Positions 1 through 5,403 of a stretch of DNA of 5,403 bases are shown here, piece after piece. Position 1 is the first letter of the stretch. Each line of letters starts with the position of its first letter. The position numbers and the translations under genes are program-made. The notes beneath the pieces are model-generated. The model searched no databases. It was not told the origin of the DNA and saw only the letters and a program-made list of their open reading frames with translations. This DNA is from a virus (Duplodnaviria > Heunggongvirae > Uroviricota > Caudoviricetes): IMG/VR virus record IMGVR_UViG_2693429656_000025. One strand, given 5' to 3'.

Positions 1-474
1 ATGTACAGTCCGGTACAAATAGCCAATAAATTCATAACGTTGGGAAACCAACATCATAATCCTCTGACCCACATGCAACTGCAGAAGCTTACTTATATTG
101 CCCATGGTTACTATTTAGCATTAACAGGTAAGCCTTTGCTCAATGAATGTGTCTCCGCGTGGAAGTACGGTCCAGTTATTCCTGGAATGTACGATGCTTT
201 CAAAGACTATGGGAATAAACCTGTTACGAATGTAGCAGTAGCTCCTTTTGGTGGCATCGTTACTATGGATCCGCAAGCAGAGAGCATTATCGGGGCTGTT
301 TATAAGTTTTACGGCTCGAAAAATGGAATTGAGTTATCAACTCTAACTCATATGCCAGGTACGCCTTGGTCACAAGCTTATAATGGTATTGGCTCGTCAA
401 TCATCTCAAATGATGCGATCAAGGCTTATTATCATGATTTATTGAATAACCGACAGCAATGTCAGGGCCTCTGA
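1..474 (+). CDS. Panacea-domain (DUF4065 / COG3600 GepA-like) protein; candidate PanA-type antitoxin
   Basis: 157-aa ORF beginning at window position 1 with ATG (true start could lie upstream of the window). The translation carries the pattern I associate with DUF4065/Panacea: 'MQLQKLTYIAHGYYLALTGKPLLNECVSAWKYGPVIPGMYDAFKDYG'. Stop TGA at 472-474, 22 nt before the next gene. Family assignment is by motif recall, not a search. Confidence 0.75.
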   Translation: MYSPVQIANKFITLGNQHHNPLTHMQLQKLTYIAHGYYLALTGKPLLNECVSAWKYGPVIPGMYDAFKDYGNKPVTNVAVAPFGGIVTMDPQAESIIGAVYKFYGSKNGIELSTLTHMPGTPWSQAYNGIGSSIISNDAIKAYYHDLLNNRQQCQGL

Positions 475-496: not shown

Positions 497-1045
497 ATGT
501 CTCACAATTCAGATATCTATAAACTTATCGGAGCGGCCGCAGGTGTTGAAAATGGTCGCTCTGAAGCATCCTTAAACTCTACTGACAGTCAAGAACAGGT
601 TTTTAAATCTGCATTTGAGCCGTCTAATCATGAGAGCGACGATGATTCTTCTTCAGAAAATAAAGCTATTCTGGAGGCAGAAGAGTTTGGTTCTAATACT
701 GGTGCATTGCATGAGTTTATGCAGCAGAACAGAATGGACAGTCTTCAAGCTCAGCTTGATATGCTCAAATCACAAGTACGGGATAAGATAGCTGACGCAA
801 CTGGTAAAGAAATAGACAATGAGCTTCGGACAAAAATGGCCTCATTCACGGTTTGGTTTATGTCGTGTTGGTGCTTATTCGTTGTCGCAATGTTTACATC
901 GTTTCTTATTGCACATGAAGGAAAGCCTCCAGTTGAAGCGATCGTTGCATTACTAGGTACAAGTACAATTAGTATTGTTGGTTTGGTTGGTTTCGTTGTT
1001 AGTGGATTGTTCAAATCAAGAAAAGATAGTGATAAAGAAAAATAA
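497..1045 (+). CDS. Small membrane protein: acidic Ser/Asp-rich N-terminus, predicted coiled coil, two C-terminal transmembrane helices; candidate toxin/effector partner of the upstream Panacea protein
   Basis: 182-aa ORF with ATG at 497 and RBS AGGGA upstream. Low-complexity acidic stretch 'SNHESDDDSSSENKAILEAEEF', heptad-like segment 'LQAQLDMLKSQVRDKIADATGKEIDNELRTKMAS', then two hydrophobic spans 'FTVWFMSCWCLFVVAMFTSFLIAH' and 'IVALLGTSTISIVGLVGFVVSGLF' separated by 'EGKPPVEA', and a basic tail 'KSRKDSDKEK'. Stop TAA at 1043-1045. No family recognised. Confidence 0.6.
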   Translation: MSHNSDIYKLIGAAAGVENGRSEASLNSTDSQEQVFKSAFEPSNHESDDDSSSENKAILEAEEFGSNTGALHEFMQQNRMDSLQAQLDMLKSQVRDKIADATGKEIDNELRTKMASFTVWFMSCWCLFVVAMFTSFLIAHEGKPPVEAIVALLGTSTISIVGLVGFVVSGLFKSRKDSDKEK

Positions 1046-1064
1046 CCCGTACATATACGGGTTA
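1043..1064. terminator. Bidirectional intrinsic terminator between convergent genes
   Basis: Inverted repeat AACCCGTA / TACGGGTT (1044-1051 and 1056-1063) with a 4-nt loop CATA. T-rich sequence follows on the plus strand (TCCATAGTTTTAGTTT...). On the minus strand the hairpin is followed by TTATTTTTCTTTATC. It sits between the TAA of the 497..1045 gene and the stop of the minus-strand 1079..1351 gene. Confidence 0.5.
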
Positions 1065-1078
1065 TCCATAGTTTTAGT

Positions 1079-1351
1079 TTAGTTATATTTTTGTTTTTCC
1101 GTTCTGACTTTTTCCCACTCAGCACGCCCTTCTTCTCGCCTTTTGTCTATGTATTCCGCAAGATCCTGAATATTGATGCAACGTTTTGCTTTTTGTGATG
1201 TGCCGATGCGATATGTTGGAACGGGCAACTTACAAGCGTTTGCTTTTGCTTCTGCCGTGGCTGGACTCATGCCAAAGTACTTTTGGCTAACTGCTGAGAG
1301 TTCAATGTTTGGGGTATTGAATTCAGCCATCAGTAAAAACAAGGTGTTCAT
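1079..1351 (-). CDS. PrtN-family / excisionase-like small DNA-binding protein (putative recombination directionality factor)
   Basis: The ORF track gives 1079..1378 from a GTG. An in-frame ATG at 1351 has a strong RBS (GGAGAAAA, about 5 nt upstream) and yields a 90-aa product starting 'MNTLFLLMAEF...', which resembles the N-terminus of pyocin-activator PrtN-like prophage proteins as I recall them. Position at the distal end of the operon fits an Xis-like role. Start choice and function are not certain. Confidence 0.55.
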   Translation of the reverse strand: MNTLFLLMAEFNTPNIELSAVSQKYFGMSPATAEAKANACKLPVPTYRIGTSQKAKRCINIQDLAEYIDKRREEGRAEWEKVRTEKQKYN

Positions 1352-1387
1352 AATTTTCTCCATCAAAACCGGCTGCACCCGGGAAAA

Positions 1388-1959
1388 TCATAATTCTGTG
1401 CTGGTGGCAGGAATTAATTTCTGCCAGATAGCGGAAACATATTTTGCCTGATGACGGGCATCAGCCAGGGCGTTGTGCCGTTCGCCATCGAAAGGCATGT
1501 CCATTTTGGGGTCGAATCCGATGGAACGCCCAAGCGTAACGATCGTGCGTACATCGTGGTCATTCCAGTACGCCCACGGGCAGATTTGTCCTGCTCGCTC
1601 GTAAGCTCCACGTAAAATTACGTTGTCGAAGGTGGCCCCGTTACCCCAGACTTTTAAATATTTTATATTGTCTGTATGCTGATTAATGAAATGACTCAAT
1701 TCAGAGAGTGCATCGCTGATCGATAAAGTATCATCAATACAGATTGCAGTTCGTGCTTCAGGGCTCTGTTTCAACCACCACAGGAGGTATCGCCGTCAGG
1801 TGTAGCTCCTTGCTTCATAGCACTGTCTAGGCTGACAACCGCATAGAATTCTTGTCCGATGTCACCGGTTTCTGGGGTAAAGAACACCGCGCCAATGGAA
1901 ACGATCGGTGCATCCTTATTTTTCCCCATCGTCTCAAGGTCGATCATTAAGTTGTTCAT
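1388..1959 (-). pseudogene. DnaQ-like 3'-5' exonuclease (DEDD fold) interrupted by a frameshift; two ORF fragments
   Basis: N-terminal fragment (1771..1959, ATG at 1957-1959) carries an Exo I-like motif 'MIDLETMG' and ends '...PDGDTSCGG*'. C-terminal fragment (1388..1774) carries Exo II/III-like motifs 'WGNGATFDNVIL' and 'HNALADARHQAKY'. The two frames overlap only between about 1773 and 1798. Shifting frame there gives a continuous '...PDGDT..LWWLKQSPEAR...'. This is a single-base indel or a sequencing error. RBS AGAGGTGA lies upstream of the ATG at 1959. Confidence 0.7.
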
Positions 1960-2768
1960 CACTTCACCTCTTGTGATGGTTTTGCTGCAAAATACTCGAT
2001 ACCTTTATCCCAGATAGATTTTATGGTCGACCACGTGACTGGCACTTTAATTTCAATACGTCCGCTCCCGTCACAGGTATCGCAATCATCATCGCCAAAG
2101 CATTCCAGGCAGCTTATAAACGTAGTTTCTGAAAATTCACCGGATAGCACCCCCTTAACGCCGTTCTCGGCTGTTAGTCTCTTCGGCACCATAACCCAAC
2201 CATCCGGAGTTACCGGAGAGTTGCCAGACAGTGCGTTCTGCAATCGTTCCAGCTTAACGTATTCCTGAACCCTGTTTCCGTCGCACGCCTGAAGCCATTG
2301 CACAGCCTTTTGCGCATCAGTGTGAAAGGTACAAGTGCGACCGTCATCAAATTGCATTTCGTAGAGGTCAGCAACCTGTTTAAACTGCGTTTGTGGCAAC
2401 TTGTAAGCCTGGCTTGCAGGTACGGCACCATAGAGCATGGCAGCTCGGCAGGCGTTCCAGCCTTCATCAAAACCGACTATGCCATTATTTAAAGATGGAC
2501 GAGCATCTGGCACCACCGGCACTGGCTTGGCTATATATAGCGGCTGAACATACCAGCCCTTCGATAACCAACTGTCAGCAATGTTTTTACTCCTCGTTAT
2601 TGCCGGAATACCTAAGCCATTGTCTGAATGCAGCCATGCCACCGGATCCGCTTCCAGCGATGCCAATGCAATTTCATAAGCCCGGCGCTCAATATTGTCT
2701 CGCACATCTAGGCTGCTTATGCGCTCTTTGATTTCTTTAATCAGTTCTTTGTCGGTAAAAGTGGTCAT
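1959..2768 (-). CDS. Prophage hypothetical protein, possibly ead/Ea22-like, with C-terminal CxxC-x5-CxxC zinc-knuckle-like motif
   Basis: 269-aa ORF with ATG at 2768 overlapping the upstream stop (ATGA). Its stop TGA overlaps the exonuclease ATG (TGATG at 1957-1961). Contains 'CLECFGDDDCDTCDGSGR' near the C-terminus. The Ea22-like assignment is tentative recall of '...PVAW...QPLY...' segments. Confidence 0.55.
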   Translation of the reverse strand: MTTFTDKELIKEIKERISSLDVRDNIERRAYEIALASLEADPVAWLHSDNGLGIPAITRSKNIADSWLSKGWYVQPLYIAKPVPVVPDARPSLNNGIVGFDEGWNACRAAMLYGAVPASQAYKLPQTQFKQVADLYEMQFDDGRTCTFHTDAQKAVQWLQACDGNRVQEYVKLERLQNALSGNSPVTPDGWVMVPKRLTAENGVKGVLSGEFSETTFISCLECFGDDDCDTCDGSGRIEIKVPVTWSTIKSIWDKGIEYFAAKPSQEVK

Positions 2769-3241
2769 AATTGGTCATTCTCCGCTTTGGCTGTGCGTTC
2801 GGCTTTTTCGCGTTTATGGCTCTCATAAAACCATCGGTGAAGCTCCGTTAACTCTTTATCAATAGGCTCATATTCACGGTCAAAATATGCCTGAGCATTT
2901 TTTTCATCTTCGCTAGGTAATTCGCCTGGTCCAAACAAAGTGTTATAAATCCACATCAGTGCATTTTCTGCATTACCCGTTTCTCTCCATTCAATAATTG
3001 CAGCCTGCATAACCAGAATGTTTTTGCCAAAGAACAGATCGAGTTCTTTAAATCGCTTCCGAATATATTCGTTCTCGTCTTCAAGAGCTGCGAGGCGTTT
3101 GTCTTTGCCTTGCATTTCGTCCAGCATCGCTTTTGCGGAAATATAAAGTTCCTGCTTTTTACGATCAGCAGGATCGCTGTAATGGTCCTGCATGTACTGA
3201 AATTCTTCATGCAGTGCCTGATAGTTAATTTCGGTTGTCAT
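2765..3241 (-). CDS. Prophage hypothetical protein (158 aa), charged and probably alpha-helical
   Basis: ORF with ATG at 3241 overlapping the stop of the upstream PP-loop gene (ATGA at 3238-3241). Its stop overlaps the next start (ATGA at 2765-2768). No family recognised. Codon usage is continuous with its neighbours. Confidence 0.55.
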   Translation of the reverse strand: MTTEINYQALHEEFQYMQDHYSDPADRKKQELYISAKAMLDEMQGKDKRLAALEDENEYIRKRFKELDLFFGKNILVMQAAIIEWRETGNAENALMWIYNTLFGPGELPSEDEKNAQAYFDREYEPIDKELTELHRWFYESHKREKAERTAKAENDQL

Positions 3242-4116
3242 GCCACTATCTCTTCGAATTTCAACTCCAATTGATCACCCCAGATTTCACATGATTCAGG
3301 ACACGAACCAGTATCAAATCGCCTGGCCTGCACCATTGCCTGATACAAATTTCTGTAGTCGCTGTCTGCATACATTCTGGCAATCCCGTCAAGCGTCAGG
3401 TGACCACGGTACATAACGTCTTTACCTGTCCCGCGATGACCATCTCTGACGTGTTTACCCGTAACCAGTTCATTAAAAACTCGCATCAGACCAGGTTCGT
3501 CTTTACATGCAAGCCCTAGCTTTTGCGTTGACTTTTTGATGCAAAAAACACAGTTCCCTAGGTGCTCTGGGATTTGCAAATCAAAAGGTTGTTTACGCCA
3601 CCACCGGATAACATCCGACTTATCAAAATCAGACAGCTCGGCGAGATACCTGACGCCCGATTTCGGTTTCAGTCTGCGGGGTTCGTCTGCACGAATACCC
3701 AGCCATGTGATGTAATTCCCTCTCCCGAAATGGTCATCGCAGTATTTGGTGAAGGGGACGAGTTTTAATCTGTCAGTGCAGAACGCGCCGCCGATGTATG
3801 GCGTGCCATATTTTTTAACCATATCCATAAACGGCTTGAGCACCGGCATTCGTGTTTGAATATCCTTTGGTTCCCATACCGTATAACCATTTGGCTGCCC
3901 AAGCTCTGGATTTATATCGACCTGCAACACAGTTAGCGGTATGCCCCAGAACTTCACAACCTCCCGAATAAAGCGGTATGTCAGCGGATGTTCGCAACCG
4001 GTATCCATAAAGATGTAGCAGACGTTATTGCCAGCCTTTCTTTGTTCTTCCATCAGGTGAACAAGATATGCAGATGTTCTCCCGCCAGAAAAACTAACTA
4101 CATGAGTTATGCACAT
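3238..4116 (-). CDS. Phosphoadenosine phosphosulfate (PAPS) reductase family protein / PP-loop ATP pyrophosphatase
   Basis: 292-aa ORF. N-terminal 'HVVSFSGGRTSAYL' matches the PP-loop SGGxxS signature of the PAPS reductase / DndC-like superfamily. The ATG at 4114-4116 overlaps the 3' end of the upstream HD gene by 10 nt. Confidence 0.8.
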   Translation of the reverse strand: MCITHVVSFSGGRTSAYLVHLMEEQRKAGNNVCYIFMDTGCEHPLTYRFIREVVKFWGIPLTVLQVDINPELGQPNGYTVWEPKDIQTRMPVLKPFMDMVKKYGTPYIGGAFCTDRLKLVPFTKYCDDHFGRGNYITWLGIRADEPRRLKPKSGVRYLAELSDFDKSDVIRWWRKQPFDLQIPEHLGNCVFCIKKSTQKLGLACKDEPGLMRVFNELVTGKHVRDGHRGTGKDVMYRGHLTLDGIARMYADSDYRNLYQAMVQARRFDTGSCPESCEIWGDQLELKFEEIVA

Positions 4117-4643
4117 TTGCGTAATTCCGATAACTCGTTGAAGCGTTCTATAAACATCCCGTAGGCATGGCCCGGTGCCAGTGGAATCACGTTGAACATC
4201 TCTGTTGCCGGGATGCCTTCCAGTACAGGCCAGAAAGAGCCATCATCAAGCCCGAGATCGCGGCGTTCGGTTGCCAGCATGATGAGATCGGCATATTTCA
4301 CTGGCGTGCTCATAACAGGAGGTAACCCGTATTTCTCACGGATTACGGCATCTATTTTTTCTTCCATCCGTTTATAGTCAGGAAGAAGGCGTTTCAGTGG
4401 AGCGGGAATATCCTGGCAATACGCTTCTGTTGCATCATGCATTAACGCTTCAAAAGCAAATTCCTGCGGCACCAGCTGGCTGCAAAGCACCGCATGTTGG
4501 GCGACACTGTAGAAGTGAGAAAGATGACCTGCAAAGCGGCAGATATTTGAAAGGGAAACCGCGATATCGTTAATCACGATGTCGTCTTTATTTATCCTGT
4601 CATAATAAAAATGCTTCCCGGAAAAAGTTTTAATAAATGACAT
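4107..4643 (-). CDS. yfdR: HD-domain phosphohydrolase (YfbR/YfdR-like 5'-deoxynucleotidase family)
   Basis: The ORF track starts at GTG 4670, but the ATG at 4641-4643 has RBS GGAGA 7 nt upstream and gives 'MSFIKTFSGKHFYY...', 178 aa, the size I recall for CPS-53 YfdR. HD signature: 'VAQHAV' (His) and 'MHDATEAY' (HD...E). Stop TAA at 4107-4109. Confidence 0.8.
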   Translation of the reverse strand: MSFIKTFSGKHFYYDRINKDDIVINDIAVSLSNICRFAGHLSHFYSVAQHAVLCSQLVPQEFAFEALMHDATEAYCQDIPAPLKRLLPDYKRMEEKIDAVIREKYGLPPVMSTPVKYADLIMLATERRDLGLDDGSFWPVLEGIPATEMFNVIPLAPGHAYGMFIERFNELSELRKCA

Positions 4644-4648
4644 TTTGT

Positions 4649-4653
4649 TCTCC
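4649..4653 (-). promoter_or_regulatory. Ribosome-binding site (GGAGA) for the HD phosphohydrolase gene
   Basis: The minus strand reads GTGGAGAACAAAATG; GGAGA is 7 nt upstream of the ATG at 4643. Confidence 0.45.
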
Positions 4654-4736
4654 ACGTATATGCGCTGCACCGCGCTGAGTTTGGGTAAAAGGAAGCCCTC
4701 ACCATCCGGTGATTATTGAGTTAATTACGTTTCCAT

Positions 4737-4770: not shown

Positions 4771-5403
4771 TCAGGCGGTGAAAGTACCAATAAAGGTTTC
4801 TACTTTGCTGTCTTTGAATTTCTCAACAAGCAGATCACGAAATTCGTTAGCCATATCTTCCTGCACCGCTTCCAGCTGAATAATGCGCAGAACCAGTACA
4901 GGACGATCGCCAGTGATAATGCTGAGGCGTAATTTAAACGGACGTTCTTTCAGACCTTCAAACGGAACGCATTTAAATTCAAATGCCACTGGCATAATGT
5001 CTTTGGTCTTCGCTTCGACAGATTCCATCAGGGAGCGTTTGCCGCTGAAGTCATTATCTTCAAAATCAGCGGTCTGGTTTGCTTCAATCGTGATTTTACG
5101 GACTGCCGCAGCCGCTTTTGTTGCCTGAATAGCGTCACCATTAGCATCAAAGCCCACAAGGTAGTCGGCCCAGTCTTCAATCCATTCTGCCAGTGACTTC
5201 TGGGAGTTACGCTCGCCGTTAACAGACAACAGGGCAGAGAACGGTGCTGTCTTTTTCAGTTTGAGAGTGGCGGTGTTATCTGCGTGACCTGGTTCATCAA
5301 TAGTACCCAGGTTAAGTACACTGACGGCACGCATATTATCAGCATCGATAAAGCAGCGGGTGCCTTCATCTGCAAGATCTTTAGAATAACGGGTAAAGTC
5401 ATC
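4771..5403 (-). CDS. yfdQ: Prophage protein, 3' portion only (reading frame open to the window edge); YfdQ-like (DUF2303) by context
   Basis: The reading frame stays open from 5403 down to the TGA at 4771-4773; the track's Met at 5334 is internal, with in-frame upstream sequence '...[23 protein letters not shown]'. It lies immediately upstream of the YfdR-like gene, as yfdQ does in CPS-53. The DUF2303 assignment is contextual, not motif-based. Confidence 0.6.

Follow-up and report, generated by a model that had tools for sequence, protein, structure and literature searches.

It is very probable that a heritable one-base-pair deletion has made a pseudogene of a DEDDh 3'-5' exonuclease gene carried by a prophage. 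The window, which is the whole stretch of 5,403 bases analyzed here, coincides base for base with the end of contig CYBU01000028.1 in assembly GCA_001286005.1 (its final 5,403 bases). It belongs to a lambdoid prophage inserted beside zur/dinF/lexA in Escherichia coli, and the exonuclease gene is part of the early-left operon of this prophage. The features discussed below are listed in Table 1.

Table 1. Features of the 5,403-base window, in order of position
Feature	Position	Strand	Remarks
Panacea/SocA-domain protein	1-474	+	PF13274, 66 bits
182-aa protein	497-1045	+	phrog_13343, function unassigned; strongly hydrophobic C-terminal half; starts 23 nt after the Panacea gene
Hairpin	1040-1067		10-12 bp (ATAACCCGTA...TACGGGTTAT), T-runs on both strands; between the convergent excisionase-like and 182-aa genes
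TorI/PrtN-like excisionase (recombination directionality factor)	1079-1378	-	PF11112, 81.8 bits; phrog_1300
Whole exonuclease locus (probable pseudogene)	1388-1959	-	573 nt and 190 codons once the missing A is restored
C-fragment ORF	1388-1774	-	128 codons; Exo II (D112), Exo III (H162, D167); A71T, A96T
N-fragment ORF	1771-1959	-	62 codons + TGA; Exo I (D7, E9); out-of-frame tail S-C-G-G-stop
Inter-stop window	1771-1798	-	downstream-frame TGA 1798-1796, upstream-frame TGA 1773-1771; read from the sequence
Deletion junction	1785-1786	.	one bp absent between them (coding strand A, + strand T)
269-aa phage protein without assigned function	1959-2768	-	phrog_60; stop overlaps the exonuclease start
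Protein without assigned function	2765-3241	-	operon member
PAPS-reductase-like protein, 292 aa	3238-4116	-	PF01507 in residues 5-72 only; phrog_424
YfdR 5'-deoxynucleotidase	4107-4670	-	assigned by Pfam/PHROGs
YfdQ/DUF2303 protein	4771-5334	-	cut by the window end

One exonuclease domain in two reading frames

The original prediction, made from the letters alone, described a DnaQ-like (DEDD) 3'-5' exonuclease split by a frameshift, with an Exo I-like IDLET motif on the upstream fragment and Exo II/III-like motifs on the downstream one. The family assignment agrees with it. Both fragments match PF16473 (Rv2179c-like 3'-5' exoribonuclease; DEDDh, DnaQ-like/RNase H-like fold) significantly and in consecutive parts: the N-fragment covers profile positions 1-57 of 177 with 80 bits and the C-fragment positions 62-177 with 142.2 bits (cut-off 27 in both cases), and an intact homologue covers all of 1-177 with 252.4 bits. 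A split of this kind, with a single uninterrupted domain spread over two frames, is far beyond chance. At this locus the PF16473 domain is not encoded as one polypeptide. With D7/E9 and D112/H162/D167 mapped to separate frames, as predicted for the three motifs, and a stop between them, the locus is therefore to be read as a PF16473 pseudogene and not as a functional member of the family.

The two fragments occupy different minus-strand frames. Counted from a GTG, the N-fragment runs over 1771-1962 and has 63 residues; counted from the ATG at 1959, which is the start used in the annotation of homologues, it has 62. This ATG overlaps the stop of the upstream gene (TGATG), likewise in the annotated homologues. 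The two frames overlap across 1774-1795, and the inter-stop window is the sole place where a change of frame could join the N- and C-fragments. An overlap limited to about 1773-1798 had been predicted, and the two stops indeed bound the joinable stretch in this way; the minus-strand context given for it, GAT ACC TCC TGT GGT GGT TGA AAC, matches the sequence.

Alignment with intact homologues, the check proposed along with the prediction, locates the lesion as a single A missing between 1786 and 1785. In the alignment with three intact homologues the missing base is the A of GATACC[A]TCCTG and the sole gap in the gene; the ancestral sequence at the junction is GATACCATCCTG, coding for D-T-I-L, and the window frame continues after Thr58 as Ser-Cys-Gly-Gly-stop. 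Each of the three fetched homologues is one 573-nt coding sequence (190 aa) between a 269-aa hypothetical protein and a PrtN-family excisionase, so that the intact relatives have a single gene at this point and not two. A megablast search with the region as query, run on 5,426 complete E. coli genomes, returned 620 records. The full-length matches listed all span 652 bases against 651 in the query, and all of these are annotated as a single '3'-5' exonuclease' gene. With the A restored, the window protein has 190 residues and differs from the intact WP_096978612.1 at three of them. Across 3.3 kb, the deletion is also the sole gap relative to the closest relative, EC17CM13 (99.46% identity).

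Recurrence and rarity of the deletion

The deletion has been deposited several times. The exact junction 32-mer is found in two IMG/VR contigs that belong to separate IMG genomes. For both the 62-aa and the 128-aa fragment, NCBI has four protein accessions with the exact sequence (CTU, CTV, CTX and CTZ series), and the 'exonuclease' entries include CTU29966.1 for the N-fragment and CTU29955.1 for the C-fragment. The C-fragment is present on seven recorded contigs, one of them from the Logan de novo assembly of run ERR178203. The two NCBI E. coli assemblies in which the deletion was read, GCA_001286005.1 (L006) and GCA_001277715.1 (L007), come from different strains. Over 8.4 kb, their chromosomal flanks show 11 mismatches and one gap relative to each other, and their cargo genes between the excisionase and the chromosome are wholly different. 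Between contig L004 and the window there are 12 substitutions, confined to the 3' end of the excisionase gene, where a mosaic boundary lies.

The allele is rare. A 40-mer centered on the junction, which seeds megablast only where the deletion is present, finds nothing in the 5,426 complete E. coli genomes. With the surrounding 80-mer, none of the 350 matching records from the complete E. coli genomes reaches 99% identity, and the best 40 of these 350 all span 81 bases. The junction 32-mer is absent from the GTDB representative genomes. In IMG/VR, the in-frame version, counted with a degenerate pattern for the DGDTILWWLKQ stretch, occurs in at least 120 contigs versus two with the deletion.

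The intact gene is normally under purifying selection, as follows from a pN/pS of about 0.15 among 48 unique 190-codon alleles. The IMG/VR set comprised 113 listed copies not cut by a contig end. By a strict test, 83 of these have an ORF that contains both an Exo I motif and a Met start, and 73 of the 83 are exactly 190 aa long. The other 30 failed on the start-codon pattern only, and 29 of them show [IV]D[IL]E[ST] in the same open frame. Thus 112 of the 113 copies keep Exo I in one open frame with the motifs downstream of it, the exception being L099. In the window allele, residues 71 and 96 are both Thr (A71T, A96T). In 73 intact IMG/VR copies, residue 71 is Ala in 65 and Ser in 8, and residue 96 is Ala in 72 and Ser in one; Ala stands at both positions in 12 of 12 intact cluster members. 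Both private changes are downstream of the frameshift and none is upstream. They are consistent with drift once the gene was inactive, although relaxed selection cannot be proved from only two changes. Because they occur in no intact copy examined, they point to a distinct evolutionary history of the deletion allele.

Other disruptions of the gene are found elsewhere. The IMG/VR copy L099 (around 11710) is without the Exo I IDLET segment, another IMG/VR allele is shortened to 157 aa, and a complete genome of E. albertii encodes BAT46019.1, a protein of 148 aa annotated as 'putative exonuclease, N-terminal part'. Since these disruptions are independent, they suggest that this exonuclease decays recurrently in prophages.

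Probable loss of the enzyme and the alternatives to it

When T4 DexA, the repaired window protein and 67 homologues are aligned, the catalytic DEDDh residues are D7, E9, D112, H162 and D167, and each is invariant or nearly so (67-68 of 68 rows). The frameshift interrupts the best-conserved stretch of the family, T-I-x-W-W-x-x-Q-S-P-E-A-R, which even T4 DexA keeps. The division of the catalytic residues, D7/E9 on one side and D112/H162/D167 on the other, means that exonuclease activity would almost certainly be lost; neither fragment is expected to be active alone. Loss of the A in GATACC[A]TCCTG shifts the frame after Thr58, which then reads Ser-Cys-Gly-Gly and a stop, and the resulting 62-residue peptide has only two of the five catalytic residues (D7, E9). 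The other three (D112, H162, D167) lie in a fragment that has neither an ATG/GTG start nor a proper ribosome-binding site. We propose that no active enzyme is made. The mutation probably arose once in a prophage lineage and then reached a few related strains of E. coli by inheritance or transfer, and the two further amino-acid changes may have gathered later in the part that was no longer translated.

This reading presupposes that the deletion exists in the bacterium. The gene could be intact in the real genome and the missing base an error of sequencing or assembly, since the window comes from the end of a contig in an Illumina draft assembly, and the carriers' accession prefixes (CTU/CTV/CTX/CTZ, CYBO/CYBU) hint at one large submission, for which a shared pipeline is possible. 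However, the site reads ACC-A-TCC, which is not a homopolymer and rules out an error of the homopolymer type. The deletion is shared by at least two strain backgrounds, which differ in flanking SNPs and in cargo, and by the independent Logan assembly, and the allele carries its two private substitutions. The recurrence of the deletion in two strain backgrounds, in two IMG/VR contigs and in the Logan re-assembly excludes a random error. That several strains and two assemblers would share a systematic error at a site outside any homopolymer is very unlikely. We consider an artefact highly improbable, and the deletion appears to be a real, inherited allele. The original prediction had favored a real inactivating indel, and its recurrence in independent assemblies of at least two strain backgrounds bears this out; its hedge, a homopolymer or sequencing error, is not supported, as the A is not in a run and the deletion recurs even in a re-assembly from raw reads. 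A real deletion could still be overcome if a programmed -1 ribosomal frameshift or transcriptional slippage restored the full-length protein. A -1 (or +2) shift is required, and a -1 shift anywhere within 1774-1795 would rejoin the frames. However, no X XXY YYZ slippery heptamer exists anywhere in the upstream ORF, as had been predicted for the overlap, and the overlap sequence has no base run that would permit slippage of RNA polymerase. A stretch of 111 nt, from the overlap in the downstream direction, folds no better than shuffled sequence (MFE -23.9 kcal/mol, mean of the shuffles -23.75, z = -0.05), the whole window is without an Rfam match above threshold, and the two-frame layout is not conserved, as the homologues are single ORFs. 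Because slippery heptamer, stimulatory structure and Rfam match are all missing, programmed frameshifting, which the original prediction had also thought unlikely, is excluded in practice, and the chance that recoding rescues the protein is negligible.

It is also possible to imagine a gene that is split and still works, in which the C-fragment is made by termination-reinitiation and the pieces assemble into an active exonuclease. The C-fragment lacks an ATG/GTG start ahead of its catalytic residues; its sole candidate start is a TTG at 1774-1772 that overlaps the TGA of the N-fragment (TTGA, 1774-1771), and because of this overlap some reinitiation with synthesis of the C-fragment is conceivable. 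The catalytic residues are intact on both fragments, and the allele persists in several strains. Yet the TTG is a poor start without a correctly spaced Shine-Dalgarno sequence, its GGTGGT-like element being at zero spacing. No homologue has a two-gene arrangement; nearly all IMG/VR copies are in one frame, and L099 lost its Exo I segment instead. The break removes Ile59 and adds SCGG inside TILWW, within the most conserved segment, and two private nonsynonymous changes lie in the C-fragment. Assembly of the two pieces into a working enzyme is therefore very doubtful. Only a slight chance is given to the wider proposal that the split allele is alive, through TTGA reinitiation and an active enzyme or one of altered specificity, or that the loss itself was selected in this E. 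coli lineage. In the latter case the intact enzyme may be costly, for example, or may act in phage defense or counter-defense as reported for EcD/HREX. Inactivation by the one-base deletion is the reading we prefer.

Relatives, prophage setting and meaning of the split locus

The same gene is known intact in lambdoid prophages and phages as the E. coli '3'-5' exonuclease' (WP_096978612.1 in EC17CM13; WP_001061343.1; phage mEp460; PHROG 255). These copies hold the same operon position, between the phrog_60 protein and the TorI-like excisionase, with 95-99% nucleotide identity, and are single 190-aa ORFs, whereas the window copy lacks one A, is split and has A71T and A96T. With respect to PF16473, the DEDDh residues are conserved and the two fragments together cover the profile, but the domain is read in one frame elsewhere and in two frames in the window. 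The family is widespread in phages, with 1,389 phage records found by tblastn, from 98% identity in mEp460-type lambdoids down to 29% in T4 dexA. A literature search for Rv2179c yielded papers on Mycobacterium alone, in which the protein is mentioned, and none on phage members.

By sequence, relatives in the PDB are limited to 8KEL and 8KEN, the structures of T4 DexA and of its S87A/D90A mutant (PMC12153337). Homology to DexA is detectable (E = 4.8e-11, about 29% identity), and D7, E9, D119, H186, D191 and W152 of DexA correspond to D7, E9, D112, H162, D167 and W132 of the prophage protein, which is 37 residues shorter and lacks several DexA insertions. EcD (HAK9828821.1), an E. coli homologue of DexA, is reported to degrade 5hmC-DNA selectively and to protect against T4 ('HREX'); in EcD the tetramer-forming D90 of DexA is replaced (A78), a stated hallmark of this protein, while W152 and D169, tied to recognition of 5hmC, are retained, and most bacterial DexA homologues keep Asp at the D90 position (PMC12153337, 2025). 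Like EcD, which we compare by its published description, the window protein is a bacterial/prophage homologue of DexA in E. coli. It has D83 at the D90 position, as do 52 of the 68 non-DexA rows (67 homologues and the repaired window protein), W132 at W152, and S146 at D169, where the alignment runs through a gapped loop. We rejected the intact protein as a defense nuclease of the EcD/HREX type, as the defining replacement of D90 is absent.

The operon is tightly packed on the minus strand, with families assigned from Pfam and PHROGs. The gene for the PAPS-reductase-like protein stands where CPS-53 of K-12 has yfdS. K-12 shares only yfdQ-yfdR with the window. Its ypdJ, adjacent to torI in CPS-53, was considered as a remnant of the exonuclease and rejected (BLASTP E = 3.1, no blastn match). 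In EC17CM13, the closest intact relative, yfdR is broken instead (L001, 2592-2894): it is annotated as incomplete, its N-terminus is missing, and it sits at a mosaic junction with a cI/Cro module. Decay has affected different genes in different members of the prophage family. In relatives L001 and L002, a 105-bp fragment annotated as 'tRNA-dihydrouridine synthase, incomplete' lies between the prophage end and zur (7435-7539 and 5435-5539, respectively), and because these relatives carry it, integration of the family into dusA is suggested. E. coli SX12 has the exonuclease-excisionase region both on the chromosome (NZ_CP142783.1) and on a 55.6-kb 'plasmid' (NZ_CP142787.1); the latter record may represent either a phage-plasmid or a prophage that had excised as a circle and was assembled on its own.

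Pairs of a PanA-type antitoxin and a membrane toxin have been described (PMC8832971), and the Panacea gene and the 182-aa gene at the prophage end look like such a pair. The slot between excisionase and chromosome holds a YafO toxin in UPEC 26-1, genes for 57 and 177 aa in L007, and a 190-aa Panacea protein with genes for 128 and 57 aa in L001 and L002. It appears to be a variable hotspot for toxin-antitoxin or defense cargo. The hairpin between the convergent genes is probably a bidirectional terminator-like site.

The exonuclease locus is an ordinary, lineage-specific case of a one-base deletion that makes a pseudogene of an accessory prophage gene, and it is already public as two mis-split coding sequences. 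The main value of the finding is for annotation: the small 'exonuclease' coding sequences (CTU29966.1, CTU29955.1) should be one frameshifted pseudogene. It is also a clean case of prophage gene decay. As a putative natural loss-of-function allele, it could serve as a control when DexA homologues are tested in phage defense.
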